Shown here in pieces: positions 20,908 to 30,222 of a stretch of 64,000 bases of DNA. Both the position numbers and the translations under genes were made by a program. Where the stretch lies: assembly GCA_035456125.1 (NCBI GenBank), contig DATIDT010000029.1, positions 8,694 through 72,693 on the forward strand, given 5' to 3'. Under the pieces are notes generated by a model that saw only the letters and a list, made by a program, of their open reading frames with translations, did no database searches and was not told the DNA's origin. Each line of letters starts with the position of its first letter. The stretch's first letter is position 1. The stretch is from Gaiellaceae bacterium. GTDB taxonomy: Bacteria; Actinomycetota; Thermoleophilia; Gaiellales; Gaiellaceae.

Positions 20908-21092
20908 CTTGAATCCTCCTTGGGTGGTGGTTCCGGGATTGCTCCGCAGTGAAGCCGCCGGCACGCGCGCCGCCATCCGCGAGCAGCCGCCGATCTGCTG
21001 GGGCTGAGCCGCGGAGTCGGTGCGGCTTTTCCGCAACGCCGTGCCGGGCAGAGACCGATGGCGGGCGGCCCGGGCGCGAGGAAGCTGAACGC

Positions 21093-22694
21093 ATGGGCGT
21101 CGCAACGGAGACCGCAATCCGGCCGATCGCGGCCGTCGCCGGCGACCTCGGCCTGGACGACGAGCACGTCGAGCCGCACGGCCGCTACACAGCGAAGATC
21201 AATCTCGCGGCGCTCGGCGCCGCACCGCGCGACGGCAAGCTCGTCTGCGTCACCGCGGTCACCCCGACGAAGGCCGGCGAGGGCAAGACGACCACTGCCA
21301 TCTCCCTGGCCGACGCGCTCGGACTGGGCGGCGACAACCCCGTCCTGTGCCTCCGGGAGCCGTCCCTCGGCCCGGTGTTCGGGCTGAAGGGCGGTGGGAC
21401 GGGCGGCGGCCGCGCGCAGGTCTTCCCGCCGGAGCTCGTGAACCTCCACTTCACCGGCGACATTCACGCCATCGGCGCGGCCAACAACCTGCTGGCCGCG
21501 CTCGTCGAAGCGCATCTGCTGCACGGCAACGAGCTGCGCATCGATCCTCTGTCGATCAGCTGGCGGCGCTGCCTCGACATGGACGACCGCGCCCTGCGTC
21601 GCATCGTCGTCGGGCTCGGAGGCCGTGCGAACGGAGCGCCGCGCGAGACGGGCTTCGACATCACCGCCGCCTCCGAGGTGATGGCGATCGTCGCAGTGTC
21701 GCAAGACTACGACGACCTCCGTGCGCGGCTCGGCGCAATCACCGTCGCGCGCGACGCCGCAGGCGAGCGGGTGACCGCGGAGCAGCTGCGCGCCGCCGGT
21801 GCGATGGCGGCGCTTCTGGTCGACGCCCTCAAGCCGAATCTCATCCAGACGCTCGAGGGCGTGCCGGCACTCGTCCACTGCGGACCGTTCGCGAACATCG
21901 CCCACGGCAACAACTCGATCGTCGCCGACATGCTCGGGCTCGAGCTCGGCGACTACGTCGTCACCGAGAGCGGCTTCGGCGCGGAGATGGGCTTCGAAAA
22001 GTTCGTCGACATCGTTTGCGGCCTCGGAGACATGCGCCCGGCGGCGGTCGTCGTCGTCGCGACGACGCAGGCGCTCGAGCATCACGGTGCCGACGGCGCG
22101 AACCTGGAAGCGAACCTGCGCATCGTCCGCGAGGTCGGGATCGAGCCGGTCGTGGCGATCAACCGCTTCCCGACTGACACGCGAAGCAAGACGAACGCGC
22201 TCAGGAAGGTGGCCCTCGAGCTCGGCGCGTACGCGGCCGAGGTCAACGACGGCTACGAGCACGGCGGCGCGGGCGCGGCGGCGCTGGCCGAGGCGGTGAA
22301 GGCGGCCGCCGCGCGGCCCGCGGAGGTCCGCCCGCTCTACGCCGGCGGCGACCCGTTGCGGCGCAAGCTCGAGGCGGTCGCACGGAAGGCCTACGGTGCC
22401 GCCGACGTCGAGCTGGCCCCGGCGGCCGTGAAGCAGCTGAGACAGCTCGAGGCGGACGGCCTCGACCACCTGCCGGTGTGCATCGCGAAAACGCATCTGT
22501 CGCTCTCGCACGACCCGAACGCCCTCGGCGCGCCGCGTGGTTTCACACTCCCCGTCAGAGAGCTCAGGCCGTATACGGGCGCCGGCTGGATCGTCGCGCT
22601 GTGCGGCGACATGCAGACGATGCCGGGCCTGCCCTCGAAGGCCGCTGCCTTCGAGATCGACGTCGACGGTGAGACGATTCGCGGCTTGCGTTGA
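21093..22694 (+). CDS. fhs: Formate--tetrahydrofolate ligase
   Basis: GAGGAAG RBS. VTAVTPTKAGEGKTTT P-loop, ...HCGPFANIAHGNNS..., ...ICIAKT.. pattern. Confidence 0.9.
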   Translation: MGVATETAIRPIAAVAGDLGLDDEHVEPHGRYTAKINLAALGAAPRDGKLVCVTAVTPTKAGEGKTTTAISLADALGLGGDNPVLCLREPSLGPVFGLKGGGTGGGRAQVFPPELVNLHFTGDIHAIGAANNLLAALVEAHLLHGNELRIDPLSISWRRCLDMDDRALRRIVVGLGGRANGAPRETGFDITAASEVMAIVAVSQDYDDLRARLGAITVARDAAGERVTAEQLRAAGAMAALLVDALKPNLIQTLEGVPALVHCGPFANIAHGNNSIVADMLGLELGDYVVTESGFGAEMGFEKFVDIVCGLGDMRPAAVVVVATTQALEHHGADGANLEANLRIVREVGIEPVVAINRFPTDTRSKTNALRKVALELGAYAAEVNDGYEHGGAGAAALAEAVKAAAARPAEVRPLYAGGDPLRRKLEAVARKAYGAADVELAPAAVKQLRQLEADGLDHLPVCIAKTHLSLSHDPNALGAPRGFTLPVRELRPYTGAGWIVALCGDMQTMPGLPSKAAAFEIDVDGETIRGLR

Positions 22695-23857
22695 GCGCCG
22701 CCAGCGCAAGCGGTAACGTCGAGCTGCTGAGTGAGCGCCCGGACTCCGCGCTTGTCATCCCGCTCGACGGGCTGGACGAGCTTGTCACGGTTCTGCGAGA
22801 GCGCGGCTACCGCGTGATCGGGCCGAAGGCCCGCGACGGCGCGATCGTCTACGACGACATCGCCGGCGCGGCCGACCTCCCGGCCGGCTGGGGCGACGAG
22901 CAGGACGCCGGCTCGTACCGGCTCGTCCGCCGCGCCGACGACGCGCGCTTCGGGTACGCCGTCGGTCCGCATTCGTGGAAGCAGTTCCTCCAGCCGCCGC
23001 ACGTCCGCCTCTGGCAGGCGGAGCACGACAGCGCGCTCGAGCAGGAACCGGAGCCCGACCGGCCGCTGGCGTTCGTCGGCGTGCGCGGGTGCGACCGGCA
23101 CGCGATCGCGATCCAGGATCGCGTACTGCTCGGAGGGCGCTACGCCGACGACGACTACGCCGCGCGCCGCGACGGCGCGTTCGTCGTCGCCGTCGACTGC
23201 GCGGAGCCCGCCGGCACGTGCTTCTGCGTCTCCATGGACACCGGCCCCGGCGTCGAGGACGGTTTCGACCTCGCGCTGACGGAGCTGCTGGACGGCGAGC
23301 ACCGCTTCCTCGTCCGCGTCGGCAGCGAACGGGGCGCCGACGTGCTGTCGGAGGTGTCCTCCCGCGCTGCCGAGCCCGACGAGCTCTCCGCGCGCGCGGG
23401 GATCGTCGAGCAGGCAGCCCAGCGGATGGGGCGCGAGCTGGACACGACAGGGCTGCGCGAGCTGCTGCAGGACGCGCTGGAGCATCCGCGCTGGGACGAG
23501 GTCGCCGAGCGCTGCCTCACGTGCGGGAACTGCACGATGGTCTGCCCCACCTGCTTCTGCACGACGGTCGAGGACGTGACGGATCTCGGCGGCGAGCACG
23601 CGGAGCGCTGGCGTTCGTGGGACACGTGCTTCTCGCTCGACCACTCGTACATGCACGGCGGCAGCGTGCGCGCGACCGGTCGCTCGCGTTACCGGCAGTG
23701 GCTGACGCACAAGCTCGGCACCTGGTGGGACCAGTTCGGGACGAGCGGCTGCGTCGGCTGCGGCCGGTGCATCGCGTGGTGCCCGGTCGGCATCGACATC
23801 ACGGAGGAGGCGGCGGCGCTGCGGGCGTCGCCGGCAGGCGATGGCGCGCGGGCTTGA
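22691..23857 (+). CDS. hyhB: Hydrogenase beta subunit, AsrA/HydB-like 2x[4Fe-4S] protein
   Basis: TTG start overlapping the fhs stop (TTGA). [16 protein letters not shown] and [12 protein letters not shown] motifs. Confidence 0.8.
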
Positions 23858-24305
23858 CGCGGTCGTCCTCGACGCGCCGGTCTTCTCCGGTATCGGCGAC
23901 GAGAATGCGGCGCAGCTCGCGGGTTGTGCCCGCACGACCGGCTGGGCCGACGGCGAGACGCTCTTCCGCGAGGGCGATTCCGCCGACACGTTCTACGTCG
24001 TCAGGCGCGGCCGCGTCGCGCTCGAGCTGTTCGTCCCGAACCGCGGGCCGCTGACGATCGAGACGATCGAGCCGGGCGAGGTGGTCGGCTGGTCGTGGTT
24101 GTTCCCGCCGTACCGCTGGCACTTCGACGGCCGCGCCGTCGGCGGGGTGCGAGCGATCCAGGTCGACGGCGCCTGCCTTCGGGACAAGTGCGACGCCGAC
24201 CCGGTGCTCGGCTACGAGCTGATGCGGCGCTTCTCCCAGGTGATGCTCGAACGGCTCCAGGCGACGCGCCTGCGGCTCGCCGACGTCTACGCGGTTCCGC
24301 GATGA
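23841..24305 (+). CDS. Stand-alone cyclic-nucleotide-binding (cNMP) domain protein, no HTH
   Basis: 154 aa. ...[22 protein letters not shown]...GEVVGWSWL... beta-roll pattern. Overlaps hyhB by 17 nt and is ATGA-coupled to hyhG. Confidence 0.75.
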
Positions 24306-25117
24306 GCGTCATGACGCCGAGCACCTATCTGGTCAGCGGCCGGCGGCGCGAGACGGCGGACACGTTCACGCTCGAGCTCGAGCCGCGGAACGGCGGCATC
24401 CCCGCGCCGCAGCCGGGTCAGTTCACGATGCTGTACGCGTGGGGCGTCGGCGAGGTGCCGATCTCCGTGAGTGCGGTCGAGAACGACGGGAGGCTCGTCC
24501 AGACGATTCGCGACGTCGGGGCCGTCACGCACACGCTCTGCGCGCTCGAGCAGGGAACGACGCTCGGAGTGCGCGGGCCGCTCGGCCGCGGCTGGCCGGT
24601 CGAGGAGCTCGCAGGCGCGGACGTCGTGGTCGTCGCGGGCGGGCTCGGTCTCGCGCCGCTGCGGCCGGCGGTGCACGCGCTGATCACGAAGCGCGACCTG
24701 TTCGAGCGGCTCGTGCTGCTGTACGGAGCGCGCACGCCGGGCGACCTGCTCTTCCTCGATGAGCTGGAGCGCTGGGCGGAGGGCGGCTTCGACGTGCAGC
24801 TGACCGTCGACGCAGCCGATGCGGACTGGGACGGCCCCGTGGGCGTGGTCGGCAAGCTCGTGGCCCGCGGCGAGTTCGACCCGGCATCCGCCGCCGCGTT
24901 GATGTGCGGGCCGGAGGTGATGATGCGGTTCACCGCAGCGGCGCTCGCGGAGCGCGGGGTCGCTCCGGAGCGGACGTACGTCTCGCTCGAGCGGTCGATG
25001 AAATGTGGCGTCGGGCAGTGCGGCCATTGCCAGATCGGCCCGACGCTCGTGTGTGTCGACGGGCCCGTGTACTCGTGGGCAGAGATGGCTCGATGGCTGT
25101 CGGTGCGGGAGCTCTAG
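24302..25117 (+). CDS. hyhG: Hydrogenase gamma subunit, FAD/NAD(P)-binding with C-terminal [2Fe-2S] (AsrB/PyrK-like)
   Basis: GQFTMLY...PISVS (FAD), [12 protein letters not shown] (NAD(P)), [14 protein letters not shown] cluster motif. Confidence 0.85.
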
Positions 25118-25872
25118 TGGGCGCGAAGCCGACGCTCGCCGTCTGGAAGTTCACGTCGTGCGACGGCTGCCAGCTCAGCCTGCTCGACCTCGAGGACGAG
25201 CTGCTCGCGATCGCCGGGGAGCTCGAGATCGCCCAGTTTCTCGAAGCGTCGAGCGCGACGGTCGCAGGGCCGTACGACGTGTCGCTCGTCGAGGGCTCGA
25301 TCACGACGCCCCACGACCGCGAGCGGATCCGCGAGATCCGCGACGCGTCCGGGTTCCTGATCTCGATCGGCGCGTGCGCCACTTCCGGCGGGATCCAGGC
25401 GCTCCGCAACTTCGCCGACGTCGAAGGCTTTCTCAGCGCTGTGTATGCAACGCCCGAGTACGTCGCGACGCTCGACACGTCGACGCCGATCTCCGATCAC
25501 GTCGCCGTCGACCTCGAGCTCCAGGGTTGCCCGATCAACAAGCGCCAGCTGCTCGAGGTGATCACCGCCTTCCTGCGCGGGCGACGGCCCAACGTCCCGG
25601 CGTACTCGGTGTGCGTCGAGTGCAAGCGCCGCGGGACGCCGTGCGTGATGGTGGCGCGGGGCGTCGCGTGCCTCGGGCCCGTCACGAACGCCGGCTGCGG
25701 CGCGCTCTGCCCGGCGTATGCCCGCGGCTGCTACGGCTGCTTCGGCCCGAAGGAGCAACCCAATCTCGCCTCCCTGACGGCGTGGTGGGTCGACGAGCTC
25801 GCCGTCGAGCCGCCGGCGGTCGATCGTGCGCTCCAGACGTTCAACGTCGAGAAGTTCAGGCGCACGGCATGA
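25117..25872 (+). CDS. hyhS: NiFe hydrogenase small (delta) subunit, group 3 type
   Basis: [45 protein letters not shown] Cys motifs. GTG at 25117 overlaps the hyhG stop; an ATG at 25093 is an alternative. Confidence 0.8.
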
Positions 25873-27164
25873 CCACCACGCGCCGGACGATCCAGACGGA
25901 CTATCTCGCGCGGGTCGAGGGCGAGGGCGCGATGACCGTCCGCCTGGTCGACGGCCAGGTGGAGGACGTCGAGCTCCGCATCTTCGAGCCGCCGAGGTTC
26001 TTCGAGGCGATGCTCCGCGGACGCTCGTTCCGCGAGGCTCCGGACATCACCGCGCGCATCTGCGGGATCTGCCCCGTCGCGTACCAGACGAGCGCCGTCA
26101 ACGCGATGGAGGACGTCTGCGGCGTGACGGTGCCCGAGCCGATCCGGATGCTGCGGCGGCTCCTCTACTGCGGCGAGTGGATCGAGAGCCACGCGCTGCA
26201 CGTCTACATGCTCCACGCACCCGACTTCCTGGGCTACGACGGCGCGGTGCAGATGGCACAGGAACATCCGCGCGAGGTGGAGCGCGGCCTCGCGCTGAAG
26301 AAAACGGGCAACGAGCTGATGGCTCTGATCGGAGGACGCGAGATCCATCCGATCAACGTCCGCGTCGGGGGCTTCTACCGCGCGCCGACGCAAGCCGAGC
26401 TCCGCACGCTCGTCGATCCGCTCGAGCGCGCGCGAGCGGCGGCGCTCGAGACCGTGCGCTGGACCGCGTCGTTCGGGTTCCCCGAGCGTGAGGTGCCCTG
26501 CGAGCTGGTCGCGCTCTCGGACCCGCGGGCCTACGCGATCGAGAACGGCCGCATCGTCTCCGACCGCGGCCTCGGAATCGGGCCCGGCGAGTACGACGGG
26601 CAGTTCGTCGAGGAGCACGTCGAGCGCTCGAACGCGCTCCATTCGCGGCGCACCGACGGGACGACGTACCTCTGCGGCCCGCTCGCGCGCTACACGCTCG
26701 GCTCCGACCGGCTGTCGCCGGCGGCGCGCGAGGCGGCACGCGCTGTCGGCCTCGGCGACGACTGCCGTGACGCCTTCCGCAGCATCGTCGTCCGCAGCGT
26801 CGAGCTCGTCTACGCGTGCGACGAAGCGCTGAGCCTGATCGCCGCCTACGAGGAGCCGGAGCAGCCCGCAGTCGACGTGGAGCCGGTGGCCGGCACCGGC
26901 TACGGCGTCAGCGAGGCACCGCGCGGGCTCCTGTACCACCGGTACCGCCTCGACGCCGACGGGACGATCCGCGATGCAAAGATCGTGCCGCCGACGTCGC
27001 AGAACCAGCTCGCGATCGAGGACGACCTGCGCGGCGTCGTCTCGAGCTACGCGGAGCTGCCGGACGACGACCTGCGGGACCTCTGCGAGCAGACGATCCG
27101 GAACTACGACCCGTGCATCTCGTGCGCGACGCACTTCCTCACGCTCGAGGTGGAGCGGCGGTGA
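25869..27164 (+). CDS. hyhL: NiFe hydrogenase large (alpha) subunit
   Basis: ATGA coupling. N-terminal [10 protein letters not shown] and C-terminal DPCISCATH Ni-Fe ligand motifs. Confidence 0.9.
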
Positions 27165-27625
27165 GCATCGTCGTGATCGGCGTAGGCAACCGCCTGCGCG
27201 GCGACGATGCGGCCGGCCCGGCGGTCGCCGACCGCGTCCGCGCACAGGCGCCCGGCAACGTCGACGTGCGCATCTGCGAGCAGGAGCCGTCGCGGCTGCT
27301 CGATGCGCTCGCGGGCGCCGACGTCGCCTTCGTCGTCGACGCCGTCTCGACCGGTGCCGCCCCGGGCACGCTCCACCGGTTCGACGCGAGCACCGCGCCG
27401 GTCCCGAGTCGCGAGCTGCGCTCGTCCACGCATGCGCTCGGCGTCGGGGAGTCCCTCGAGCTGGCACGGGCGCTCGGGCGCCTGCCCCGGCGAACCGTCG
27501 TCTTCGGCATCGAAGGCCGTGCCTTCCTCGCCGGCGGCGAGCTGAGCCGGGCAGTAGAAGAGAGCGTGGAGCGCGCCGCCGCGTCTGTCCTCGAGGAGGT
27601 GGCGCAGTGCACGAACGAGCCGTGA
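27161..27625 (+). CDS. Hydrogenase maturation endopeptidase (HycI/HyaD family)
   Basis: GTGA coupling. [19 protein letters not shown]..., ...VDAV...GTLHRF..., STHALG motif. Confidence 0.8.
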
Positions 27626-27876
27626 TGCGGCAGCTGGTGCGACGGGTGGTCGAAGTTGCGGGCGAGGAGAACGCCGACGCGGTGACAGCGATCCGGGTGC
27701 GCCTCGGAGCGCTGTCGCACTTCACGCCGGAGCATTTTCGCGAGCACTTCCTCGACGCAGCGCGCGGCACACCGGCGGAAGGCGCGGCCGTCGATGCCGT
27801 CGTCTCCACGGACCGAACTGCCGCGCACGCCGACGGCGTGGTGCTCGAGAACGTCGAACTGGAGGTGTCGCCCTGA
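27607..27876 (+). CDS. hypA: HypA-like nickel metallochaperone lacking the Zn(Cys)4 domain
   Basis: GTG start gives (M)HE N-terminus ([11 protein letters not shown]...). 89 aa with no CxxC pairs anywhere. Overlaps the protease gene by 19 nt. Confidence 0.6.
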   Translation: MHERAVMRQLVRRVVEVAGEENADAVTAIRVRLGALSHFTPEHFREHFLDAARGTPAEGAAVDAVVSTDRTAAHADGVVLENVELEVSP

Positions 27877-28091
27877 TGTGCATCGGATCGATCCAGGTGC
27901 TGGAGGACGCGTGGGAGGAGGGCGGCGCGCGCGTCGGTCGACTCGCAAACGGCACCCTCGTCACGCTCGCGTTCGTGCCTGCTGCAGAGCCCGGCGTGCA
28001 CGTCATCGTGCATCTGGGCATTCCCGTCGAGGTGCTCTCGGCCGAAGAGGCCGAGACCGCGCCCGACCTCCATGCAGGAGCGCAGCTGTGA
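27876..28091 (+). CDS. hypC: HypC/HupF hydrogenase assembly chaperone
   Basis: MCIGSIQVLE... N-terminal Cys2 motif, ...GVHVIVHLGIPVEVLSAEEA.... Confidence 0.8.
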   Translation: MCIGSIQVLEDAWEEGGARVGRLANGTLVTLAFVPAAEPGVHVIVHLGIPVEVLSAEEAETAPDLHAGAQL

Positions 28092-28984
28092 GCCGCCGCT
28101 CGACGGGAATCGCCATCGCGTTCGTGACCGCGTGCATCAGCGGCGTATCGATCTGGGTCAACTCCCACGCGGTCGCACGATTCGACGACGCCACCGTGTA
28201 TACGACGGCGAAGAACGCCGTCGCCGGCCTGCTCCTGCTCGCGCTCGCGCTTCCACTCCTCCGTCGCGCCGGTAACGGTGCTGCAGCCGTCCCCTCACGC
28301 CTCAGGCCGGCGCTGCTTGCCGTCGCCGTCGTCGGCGGCAGCGTGCCGTTCGTCCTCTTCTTCGAGGGGCTCGCCCGTGCCGAGGCGACGCAGGCGGCAT
28401 TCATCCAGAAGACACTCGTCGTCTGGGTGGCGTTGCTGGCGATCCCGCTGCGGCGCGAGCGGATCGGCATCGCCCACGTCGCCGCGATCGTGTTCGTGAT
28501 CGCCGGACAGGCCGTGCTGGCGGGCAGCGCGGGCACGGTCGTCTTCGGGACGGGCGAGGCCATGATCCTCGCGGCGACACTGCTCTGGGCAGTCGAGGTC
28601 ATGCTGGCGAAGCGACTGCTCGACGACGTCGCCGTACGCGTGTTGGCCGTGGCGCGGATGGTCCTGGGAACGGTCCTGCTGCTCGCGTGGCTCGTGGTGT
28701 CGGGGCGCGCGGACGACTTCGTCCGGCTCCCGGCGTCGCAATGGAGCTGGGCGCTGCTGACGGGCGTCCTGCTCGGCGCTTATGTCGCGACGTGGTACGC
28801 GGCGCTGGCGCGGGCTCAGTGCGTGGACGTGACCGCGGTGCTCGTCTTCGGGGCGGTCGTCACAGCGTTTCTCGCCCAGGCCGCCGACGGCGTGGCCTTC
28901 GACGCGCTCGGCGTCGTGCTCGTCACCGTCGGCGTCGCGCTCGCAGCCGTCGCCGGGAGCCGTCCGAGCTTGCGAACGGCATGA
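28088..28984 (+). CDS. EamA/DMT-family transporter (10 TM)
   Basis: GTGA coupling to hypC. Two EamA-like halves with about 10 hydrophobic helices. Confidence 0.8.
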   Translation: MSRRSTGIAIAFVTACISGVSIWVNSHAVARFDDATVYTTAKNAVAGLLLLALALPLLRRAGNGAAAVPSRLRPALLAVAVVGGSVPFVLFFEGLARAEATQAAFIQKTLVVWVALLAIPLRRERIGIAHVAAIVFVIAGQAVLAGSAGTVVFGTGEAMILAATLLWAVEVMLAKRLLDDVAVRVLAVARMVLGTVLLLAWLVVSGRADDFVRLPASQWSWALLTGVLLGAYVATWYAALARAQCVDVTAVLVFGAVVTAFLAQAADGVAFDALGVVLVTVGVALAAVAGSRPSLRTA

Positions 28985-29733
28985 CGCCCGGGCCGCTGCT
29001 CTTCGCGCGCTACGCGTACCCGCCGAACGCGCTCGGCCTTTGCGGCGCAGAGGAGTCCCGCACCCTGCTCGAGTACGGAACCGCCGGCGCTTCCGACGGC
29101 GGCCTCGCCGAGTTGGCGCAGGCCTTCGAGGGCGCCTGGCCGTACCTCACGCTCATCGCCGGCGCGAACGGCATCCACGACCCGCTCGACGCGCGCGTCG
29201 TCGAGGCGTACTGGGTCGGCAACGACCTGCTCGACCGCGTCTCCGGGCAGACGCTCGCGCGCCACATCGAGGACCGCTTCAGAGGGCGCGTAGGGCGCAC
29301 CTGGGAGCGCATCGTCGAGGCGGTGGCGGCAGGGGCGGTGCCGCACCACACGTTCCACGTCTTCGCCGTGTACCCGTGGCTCGGGCTGCTCCGGACCGGC
29401 GAAGCCGCGCAACCGCTGCTCGTGCTCGACCGTTGCCGCATCACGCCGGCCCTCGTCCAGAGCGTGGAGGGCGAAACCGTGAAGGTTCTGGCCCCGGCGC
29501 TCGACTGGGACGGCAGCCGGCTCTCACTCGGCTGGTGGAAGCAGCGGACCGCACGCTTCAGCGAAGACGGGCTCGGGTTCGTCACGCCGGCGCCCGGCGA
29601 CTGGGTATCGCTCCACTGGGATTTCGTCTGCGACCGCCTGACGCTCGCGCAGGCCACGAGCCTCTACCGGGCGACCGAGCGGGCGCTCGTGGCCGTGCAC
29701 GGCTCTGCCGGGACGAAGCTCGTGCTCGGTTAG
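28981..29733 (+). CDS. DUF6390-like protein with a C-terminal HypC-like domain
   Basis: ATGA coupling. N-terminus FARYAYPPNALGLCGAEE. C-terminus ...DRCRITPALVQSVEGETVKV...GDWVSLHWDFVCDRLTLAQA resembles HypC (MCxGxPxxV...GxWVLVHxGFA). Confidence 0.65.
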   Translation: MTPGPLLFARYAYPPNALGLCGAEESRTLLEYGTAGASDGGLAELAQAFEGAWPYLTLIAGANGIHDPLDARVVEAYWVGNDLLDRVSGQTLARHIEDRFRGRVGRTWERIVEAVAAGAVPHHTFHVFAVYPWLGLLRTGEAAQPLLVLDRCRITPALVQSVEGETVKVLAPALDWDGSRLSLGWWKQRTARFSEDGLGFVTPAPGDWVSLHWDFVCDRLTLAQATSLYRATERALVAVHGSAGTKLVLG

Positions 29734-29802: not shown

Positions 29803-30222
29803 GTGCTCGTGAGCCTGACCGCGTCTGCCCATTCGATTGCCGGAACGTCGAGGCAGAGCGTGCTGATCGACGGCAGGCACCACCTGCTCACGGACGAGCC
29901 GGAGCATCTGGGCGGCACCGACCTGGGCCCGTCGCCGCACGAGCTACTGCCGGCCGCACTCGCGGCGTGCATCTCGCTCACGCTCGTGACGTACGCACGG
30001 ACGAAGAAATGGGACATCGGCGAGGTCACGGTCGACGTCGTGTACGACAGCAAGGCGGTGCCCCGCCGGTTCGACGTGGCGATCGACATCGAGCGGGACG
30101 TCGACGAAGCGCAGCTGGCGCGACTGGAGAAGGTGGCGGCGGCCTGCCCGTTGCGGCGCTCGCTCGAGACCGGCTTCGAGTTCCACGAGGTCGTCCGTCG
30201 CCGCGAGAGCATTGCGGCCTGA
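29803..30222 (+). CDS. OsmC/Ohr-family protein
   Basis: GTG start. ...GGTDLGPSPHELLPAALAACISLT...AACPLRRSL, two conserved Cys. Confidence 0.75.
   Translation: MLVSLTASAHSIAGTSRQSVLIDGRHHLLTDEPEHLGGTDLGPSPHELLPAALAACISLTLVTYARTKKWDIGEVTVDVVYDSKAVPRRFDVAIDIERDVDEAQLARLEKVAAACPLRRSLETGFEFHEVVRRRESIAA

Follow-up and report, generated by a model that had tools for sequence, protein, structure and literature searches.

A DUF6390 protein with a HypC-related rear domain in a Gaiellaceae [NiFe]-hydrogenase operon: a candidate maturation factor found mostly without HypD, HypE and HypF

The hydrogenase operon and its DUF6390 gene

The stretch of DNA analyzed here, in the following called the window, comprises 64,000 nucleotides of contig DATIDT010000029.1 from Gaiellaceae bacterium (assembly GCA_035456125.1), a metagenome-assembled genome (MAG) with a completeness of 57%. 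It features a [NiFe]-hydrogenase operon in which structural and maturation genes are followed by a gene for a protein of the DUF6390 family, and this protein is the subject of our study. Its open reading frame (ORF; 28981-29733) runs on the plus strand, as do all window genes described below, from an ATG at 28981 to a TAG at 29731-29733 and encodes 250 amino acids (aa). The protein is a full-length match to PF19927 (DUF6390) above the gathering score (298.5 bits, the cut-off being 25, E 4.6e-89, residues 2-240 on profile positions 3-238 of 244), and a first-pass annotation made from the sequence alone had given the correct family name for its beginning. The same annotation quoted three peptides, FARYAYPPNALGLCGAEE, CRITPALVQSVEGETVKV and GDWVSLHWDFVCDRLTLAQA, all of which are present in the 250-aa ORF as residues 8-25, 152-169 and 206-225, respectively. 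Its description of an uncharacterized DUF6390 domain fused to a HypC module needs to be reworded: there are indeed two domains, the rear one of which is HypC-like, but PF19927 spans this HypC-like part too, and DUF6390 is thus the name of the whole protein, one family with two structural domains rather than "DUF6390 plus HypC". The closest named homolog stems from Gaiella, and the term DUF6390 appears in no paper of the literature searched.

The hydrogenase genes begin at 22691 with the gene for a Fer4_22 subunit. It is separated from the gene for the NAD-binding subunit by a 154-aa ORF (23841-24305) whose counterparts in three related loci (L016, L017 and L047) encode cNMP_binding proteins. 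The small (delta) subunit gene comes next (25093-25872); its product is group 3b/sulfhydrogenase-like with ShyD/HydD as best NCBIfam match. The large (alpha) subunit (25869-27164; PF00374, best NCBIfam match ShyA/HydA) features a ten-residue motif, a DPCISCATH motif and a cleavable C-terminal tail. The maturation endopeptidase encoded behind it is HycI/HybD-like (27161-27625; TIGR00072, 123 bits) and its GTG start shares the sequence GTGA with the stop codon of the large-subunit gene. Then follows the gene for a HypA of only 89 aa (27607-27876) with a GTG start preceded by GAGGAGG. This protein starts with the nickel-binding MHE and covers positions 1-66 of the HypA profile only; the zinc-finger half is missing, and the same short form of 87-89 aa is found in L016 and L017. 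A canonical stand-alone HypC of 71 aa (27876-28091; PF01455, TIGR00074), which starts with MCIGS and overlaps HypA by one base (TGATG), has its Cys2 and His46 invariant across 37 homologs. Between hypC and the DUF6390 gene resides a gene for a permease of the EamA/DMT family (28088-28984; 298 aa, PF00892), which overlaps hypC in a GTGA and the DUF6390 gene in an ATGA. Because the reading frames overlap throughout, from the large subunit to DUF6390, by 1-4 nucleotides (GTGA, TGATG, GTGA, ATGA) or, between HycI and HypA, by 19, the genes for large subunit, HycI, HypA, HypC, EamA and DUF6390 make up one coupled unit. The canonical HypC with its MC start, encoded three genes upstream of the slot of DUF6390 and overlooked in the first-pass annotation, rules out that DUF6390 is the HypC of this operon.

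The first-pass annotation addressed the gene as the last of the operon. An ORF for an OsmC/Ohr-like peroxiredoxin (29803-30222; NCBIfam OsmC-like) starts only 69 nucleotides downstream, and no terminator-like site was found between the two. As judged by tblastn, this ORF occurs within 10 kb in 1 of 80 related loci (described below) and also in the metagenome locus L017; it probably lies outside the conserved module, and it is in the sense of the last conserved gene that the statement holds. At the other end of the operon, a formate-tetrahydrofolate ligase gene (20949-22694) extends into the beginning of the first gene for a hydrogenase subunit. It is not found at the corresponding position in L016 and L017. 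Formyl-tetrahydrofolate is the substrate of HypX for aerobic synthesis of the CO ligand.

A HypC-type domain behind a helical domain

Homologs were collected from a clustered database, in which 4431 of 8000 candidates scored met E<=1e-5, corresponding to 1193 representatives at 50% identity; 75 full-length homologs that are 35-80% identical to the window protein were aligned (alignment A1). Conservation in this alignment, together with the helices of an AlphaFold2 (AF2) model, delimits an all-helical N-terminal domain (residues 1-151, 28981-29433) from a HypC-like OB-fold domain with C-terminal helix (residues 152-250, 29434-29733), the latter being supported by profile search, hhalign, AF2 and Foldseek.

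In sequence searches, the relationship of the rear half to HypC is visible at the profile level only. Neither of the curated HypC models PF01455 and TIGR00074 is matched above its cut-off by the window protein, for which NCBIfam as a whole contains no matching model; PF01455 (HupF_HypC) reaches 12 bits (E 0.24) compared with a cut-off of 28.5. Among the 75 homologs, 23 C-terminal domains match PF01455 on their own at E<=1, with a best E value of 4e-5. When a profile of the ~100 C-terminal residues (A2) was searched against all PDB sequences, four of the six matches at E<=10 were HypC proteins (2z1c, E 0.013; 3vyr, 0.017; 3d3r, 0.17; 2ot2, 1.2). In these alignments, Cys152 falls on HypC Cys2 (CrirwGrV over CLAVPGKV) and His212 on the HypC His, with GDlValHWdwvCdrL placed over GDWVIVHTGFAIEKL. 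The His of the HypC-type motif G-D-x-V-x-V-H is present in the window protein, where GDWVSLHW, containing His212, aligns with GDWVIVHTGFA of 2z1c. Comparison by hhalign of the C-terminal domain with a profile built from 37 relatives of the HypC encoded in the window yielded a probability of 78% and an E value of 1.9e-5 over 50 columns. Clusters carrying both HupF_HypC and DUF6390 annotations are also found among archaeal entries in the ESM Atlas.

The predicted structure points in the same direction. The AF2 model built on alignment A1 (mean pLDDT 94.9, pTM 0.92) consists of helices up to residue 152, the strands of a beta-barrel from 155 to 220 and a helix from 222 to 247, that is, the OB barrel plus C-terminal helix characteristic of HypC. 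Superposition of a structure prediction on HypC had been proposed in the first-pass annotation; in a Foldseek search of the PDB the model retrieved HypC from T. kodakarensis (2z1c) at rank 1 with a probability of 1.00, a TM score of 0.67 (normalized to target length) and 26% identity over 90 columns. HypC from E. coli (2ot2) was at rank 4 and the remaining matches were generic OB folds. Profile search, hhalign and Foldseek thus agree with the earlier impression that the C-terminal segment, some 95 residues, mirrors HypC. Judged by profiles and a modeled fold, the segment of residues ~152-247 is truly, if remotely, related to HypC, with homology established at both of these levels. In the reading we favor, a novel helical domain has been joined to the front of an OB barrel of the HypC type, which places the HypC Cys at the domain junction and not at the N-terminus.

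HypC, which binds Fe(CN)2CO and moves back and forth between HypD and the hydrogenase large subunit, has its essential Cys at position 2, at the N-terminus once Met is removed. The homologous Cys in DUF6390 is residue 152, the Cys of CRITPALV. It is internal, as had been noticed before, though not at "about residue 155". Pro15, Cys21, Gly22, Phe49, His212 and Trp213 are invariant in all 75 homologs and further residues come close, i.e. Cys152 (74/75), His123 (73/75), Cys217 (71/75) and His126 (68/75). Both signature residues of HypC, the Cys and the His, are therefore retained (codons 29434-29436 for Cys152 and 29614-29616 for His212, with Cys217 at 29629-29631), and the N-terminal domain contributes an invariant Cys and two near-invariant His (Cys21, 29041-29043; His123, 29347-29349; His126, 29356-29358). 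The latter suggests that the two domains may work together. Of the two outcomes that would have spoken against the first-pass annotation, a C-terminal segment unrelated to HypC and a Cys that varies among homologs, neither was observed.

For the N-terminal domain, no relative emerged. Searched alone against PDB sequences, its profile produced a chance-level match (E 0.76), Foldseek with the whole model matched PDB entries in the OB part only, and a search of the ESM Atlas with residues 1-150 gave nothing above 0.62. HypD (PF01924) was considered specifically: the DUF6390 protein does not match this family, it has three conserved Cys and its N-terminal domain is all-helical. By these features of sequence and predicted fold it is not a HypD look-alike.

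Gene neighborhoods, natural fusions and carrier genomes

One genome per species was scanned with a query of 12 sequences. This revealed at least 592 relatives, and the best 80 loci were analyzed by tblastn. They stem from Gaiellaceae, other Thermoleophilia, Acidimicrobiia, Micrococcales, Pseudonocardiales, Propionibacteriales, Geodermatophilaceae, Chloroflexota and one Steroidobacteraceae MAG. Genes for HypC and for the endopeptidase HycI are each present within 1.5 kb of the DUF6390 gene in 55 loci, and a hydrogenase large subunit is encoded within 10 kb in 58. Among these large subunits, 54 of 58 retain both the RxCGxC and the DPCxxCxxH motif as well as the C-terminal tail. The Arthrobacter/Kribbella-type large subunit has RICGICGDNH and DPCLPCGVH, which we take to be the signature of group 1h hydrogenases. 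Not a single one of the 80 loci contains hypD, hypE or hypF within 10 kb of the DUF6390 gene.

A transporter is a frequent companion. EamA is encoded within 1.5 kb in 46 loci (within 150 nucleotides in 39 of them), an Fbp-type binding protein or double permease belongs to the locus in 17 and a PBP2/FecCD-type system in eight, so that 68 of the 80 loci contain a transporter of one of these kinds within 1.5 kb. Two of the three transporter types are importers because they depend on binding proteins. Combinations of SBP_bac_1, SBP_bac_6 or SBP_bac_11 proteins with a double permease and a TOBE-domain ATPase, or of PBP2 with FecCD, are an architecture typical of the uptake of iron or iron chelates. 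Three layouts can be distinguished. In layout A, the genes are arranged as in the window, L-HycI-(HypA)-HypC-EamA-DUF6390; layout B is HycI-HypC-DUF6390-SBP-permease; and in layout C a PBP2 importer is divergent from DUF6390, which in turn converges on HypC-HycI. Two close relatives on long metagenome contigs share the complete L-HycI-HypA-HypC-EamA-DUF6390 block with the window; the genes for the remaining hydrogenase subunits no longer adjoin the block in one of the two. A homolog with 38% identity follows immediately on a hypC of 71 aa in a neighborhood devoid of hydrogenase genes. Clustering of all neighbors in the 80 loci brought up no further recurrent family able to supply the missing chemistry; what recurs otherwise are hydrogenase subunits, the cNMP-binding family (33 loci), transporter parts, DUF5947 and a protein of up to 510 aa without Pfam match. 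The latter two are confined to group-1-type clusters, in which the protein without Pfam match (462-510 aa) adjoins the endopeptidase gene in 13 loci alongside DUF5947 (for example L027, 9804-11192, and L108, 12143-13675, both on the minus strand).

Five natural fusions of DUF6390 exist among the 50%-identity representatives. An EamA-DUF6390 fusion (P0238) adjoins genes for hydrogenase large and small subunits, and this fusion to the permease itself argues that DUF6390 works at the transporter. The other four combine DUF6390 with DNA-binding domains. A GntR-DUF6390 fusion (P0129), found on nine contigs, heads an operon with a binding protein, a double BPD_transp_1 permease and an ABC ATPase with TOBE domain; a DUF6390-MarR fusion (P0175) is encoded directly after hypC; and two further proteins are PadR-DUF6390 fusions. 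In each of them DUF6390 occupies the usual slot of the effector-binding domain. That three unrelated regulator families carry it at this position argues for the binding of a small ligand or metal by DUF6390.

The distribution of DUF6390 was studied in a phylum sample of 301 genomes, two of which (the unpublished genomes G048 and G120) enter the tallies only as HypD-positive and HypC-positive. HypD is present in 152 genomes and a HypC match in 158. DUF6390 is carried by 14 genomes, 13 of them of high quality, and all 14 encode HypC along with the large subunit of a [NiFe]-hydrogenase. The same eight carriers have HypD, HypE (over cut-off) and HypF together. None of the three was found in five of the 13 high-quality carriers (G009, G017, G067, which is a single contig, G116 and G140), which belong to five families and are 94-100% complete, nor in the incomplete carrier G000. 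A solid HypC without HypD is encountered in exactly six of the 301 genomes, all of them carriers of DUF6390 (Fisher p 4e-6 for the 2x2 table of DUF6390 versus HypC without HypD, a value to be read with the reservation that related genomes are not independent). Two more genomes have weak HypC matches and no HypD, namely G070, which lacks a hydrogenase, and G122. In G122, an ORF resembling HupF, with CHGEVCVTC as an internal motif, resides near a group-1-type hydrogenase (contig C308; L029, 1054-1659).

The pattern extends beyond this sample. HypD and HypF were found in none of the five cultured carriers searched, i.e. Fodinibacter luteus JCM 17809, Pedococcus cremeus CGMCC 1.6963, Blastococcus saxobsidens DSM 44509, Arthrobacter globiformis NBRC 12137 and Kribbella alba JCM 14306, and HypD occurs in five of 50 further carrier genomes (5/55 including the cultured strains). 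In the literature searched, we found nothing on hydrogenase hosts that lack hypDEF. As DUF6390 is strongly enriched in such genomes, a different maturation route is suggested, and the module probably belongs to a route unlike the textbook one. A HydG-like radical SAM source of CO and CN was considered and is not supported: BATS-domain proteins are encoded in two of the five hypDEF-less genomes, away from the cluster. The ESM Atlas contains a cluster of ~50 proteins, mostly from Omnitrophota, that carry a HypC domain fused to a biotin-synthase-like radical SAM domain (with BATS), possibly a further non-canonical route by which HypC is fed.

Some hypDEF-positive genomes have DUF6390 encoded directly after hypC-hypD (hypE-hypC-hypD-DUF6390 in G178), and because of this arrangement DUF6390 is not simply an alternative to HypD. 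In G243, a congener of G178, a remnant of ~50 residues (L015, 1501-1620) is all that is left of DUF6390 in the same slot, between hypD and a phosphodiesterase gene. A general decay of DUF6390 in hypDEF-positive genomes was considered, but G148 has an intact gene and G243 alone holds a remnant, which is too little to argue from.

Proposed role and comparison with known systems

According to a 2025 review, no [NiFe]-hydrogenase can do without any of HypA-F, and the Fe(CN)2CO unit is viewed there as bound between Cys2 of HypC and Cys41 of HypD (PMC12134894). We propose that DUF6390 descends from HypC and acts in the maturation of [NiFe]-hydrogenases as a two-domain factor that receives a transported metal or ligand on behalf of HypC, mostly in the absence of HypD, HypE and HypF, and put the probability of this reading at roughly 60%. 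Cys152, His212 and Cys217 would form one binding site together with Cys21, His123 and His126 of the N-terminal domain, able to take up a small ligand or a metal species, the most likely candidate being iron or a complex of it. The bound species would be delivered by the adjacent uptake system, the EamA permease in the window and Fbp-type or FecCD-type ABC importers in other lineages. DUF6390 might then pass it on to the neighboring stand-alone HypC, which in turn would load the hydrogenase large subunit; conceivably, DUF6390 may also have some part in supplying the CN or CO ligands. A more far-reaching version is that many soil Actinomycetota, Chloroflexota and other organisms use a HypD-, HypE- and HypF-independent route to the Fe(CN)2CO center that has the module of hypC, an uptake transporter and DUF6390 as its hallmark; DUF6390 would accept an imported iron species or ligand precursor and, jointly with HypC, build up or relay the iron center. 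This version is tentative and we would give it somewhat less than even odds.

Several observations weigh against the proposed role. DUF6390 alone offers no source for CN and CO. Its conserved Cys number just three, motifs for Fe-S clusters or nucleotide binding are missing, and HypD, HypE and HypF cannot be replaced by this protein alone. For EamA, the direction of transport and the substrate are presumed. Genome G122 is the one exception to the pattern and has two large subunits and its HupF-like ORF but neither HypD, HypF nor DUF6390, albeit in an assembly of 360 contigs. Many of the carrier genomes are MAGs without a completeness figure, and in G178 DUF6390 coexists with hypDEF.

Different interpretations of the same data have to be considered. 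DUF6390 could be a single-chain substitute for HypC and HypD, Cys152 taking the part of HypC Cys2 and Cys21 that of HypD Cys41, with Fe(CN)2CO assembled from ligands made or imported in other ways. A (near-)invariant Cys in each domain, reminiscent of the HypC Cys2 and HypD Cys41 pair (PMC12134894), the strong enrichment in HypD-less genomes and the slot directly after hypC in layout B would all fit. We nevertheless regard such a substitution as unlikely: a [4Fe-4S] motif, a Rossmann fold and any similarity to HypD are missing, hypC and hypD share an operon with DUF6390 in G178, and HypE and HypF are absent as well, so that a scaffold alone would yield no cyanide. Fusion to GntR, PadR (twice) and MarR domains in effector position, the GntR fusion at the head of an ABC importer operon and the fusion to the EamA permease itself would fit if DUF6390 were mainly a sensor of the transported species and its stand-alone form regulated or gated the permease rather than serving as a donor to HypC. 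This is a rather unlikely explanation in our opinion, as DUF6390 on its own lacks a DNA-binding domain, its translation is coupled to that of hypC or the permease in maturation operons and it has kept the HypC Cys/His pair, and even the MarR fusion directly follows hypC.

It is further conceivable that DUF6390 is a holding chaperone specific for one large subunit, of the HupF/HoxL type, which protects or presents the apo-form, the linkage to transporters being incidental. HypC paralogs with extra parts such as HupF and HoxL act in this manner in aerobic hydrogen oxidizers (PMC12134894), and where a genome has several hydrogenases, DUF6390 is linked to one of these. The occurrence of transporters from three unrelated families in 68 of 80 loci plus a covalent EamA fusion is not incidental, regulator fusions point at the binding of a small ligand, and some copies reside away from any hydrogenase gene, which leaves this proposal improbable. 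As a way around the internal position of the Cys, cleavage before Cys152, by the protein itself or by a protease, might set free a HypC-like piece that begins with a Cys and serves as an ordinary paralog of HypC, the N-terminal domain being a mere pro-domain. HypC function is tied to the N-terminal Cys (PMC12134894) and a conserved L-D-x motif precedes Cys152. The N-terminal domain, however, has invariant or near-invariant residues of its own (Cys21, His123, His126 and others), which would be odd for a disposable pro-domain; Cys152 closes a helix (143-152) in the model and the chain runs straight into the first strand of the barrel (155-163), rather than into a loose linker, with pLDDT values above 90; and a normal HypC is encoded alongside. 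We consider cleavage highly improbable. Of the two options left by the first-pass annotation, processing of the protein or a new kind of scaffold or chaperone, the evidence favors the latter and lends no support to the former. The ties to transporters and to hypDEF-less genomes, which we regard as the main point, were out of its reach.

The proposed maturation factor would be of some consequence. Dozens of genomes encode intact large subunits, endopeptidase, HypA and HypC with no detectable HypD, HypE or HypF, and the clusters concerned are marked by DUF6390 and a transporter, which contrasts with the stated requirement for six Hyp proteins (PMC12134894). If DUF6390 proves necessary, a new maturation factor can be named, and the finding will bear on the origin of the active-site iron and possibly point to a different origin of the CO and CN ligands. 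This is relevant for atmospheric H2 oxidation in soils as well as for the expression of hydrogenases in other hosts, and the existence of cultured carriers makes the question directly testable.

When compared with known systems, DUF6390 resembles proteins of the HypC/HybG/HupF family (PF01455, TIGR00074; 2z1c, 3vyr, 3d3r, 2ot2) in that an OB barrel is followed by a C-terminal helix, the Cys/His pair (residues 152 and 212) is kept and the genes reside in hydrogenase maturation clusters. Unlike HypC, it comprises 250 instead of 70-100 aa, its Cys is internal behind a helical domain of 150 residues, and it is linked to transporters and always accompanied by a separate true HypC. With HypD (PF01924) it shares the frequent position directly after hypC and the potential to place another Cys beside a HypC-type Cys in a common site, and the presence of one goes along with the absence of the other. 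In contrast to HypD, it lacks an Fe-S motif and a Rossmann fold and has no similarity to HypD in sequence or fold; in some operons both coexist. HupF, HoxL and HoxV of oxygen-tolerant hydrogenases provide another parallel, being additional proteins, HypC-related or of scaffold type, that serve a single hydrogenase where several exist. They come into play after HypCDEF and show no tie to transporters, whereas DUF6390 occurs mostly where HypDEF are missing. Finally, DUF6390 takes the place of the effector domains of GntR, PadR and MarR regulators in its fusions. We know of no such effector domain that is derived from HypC and, unlike these domains, DUF6390 in the window stands alone, as part of a maturation operon.

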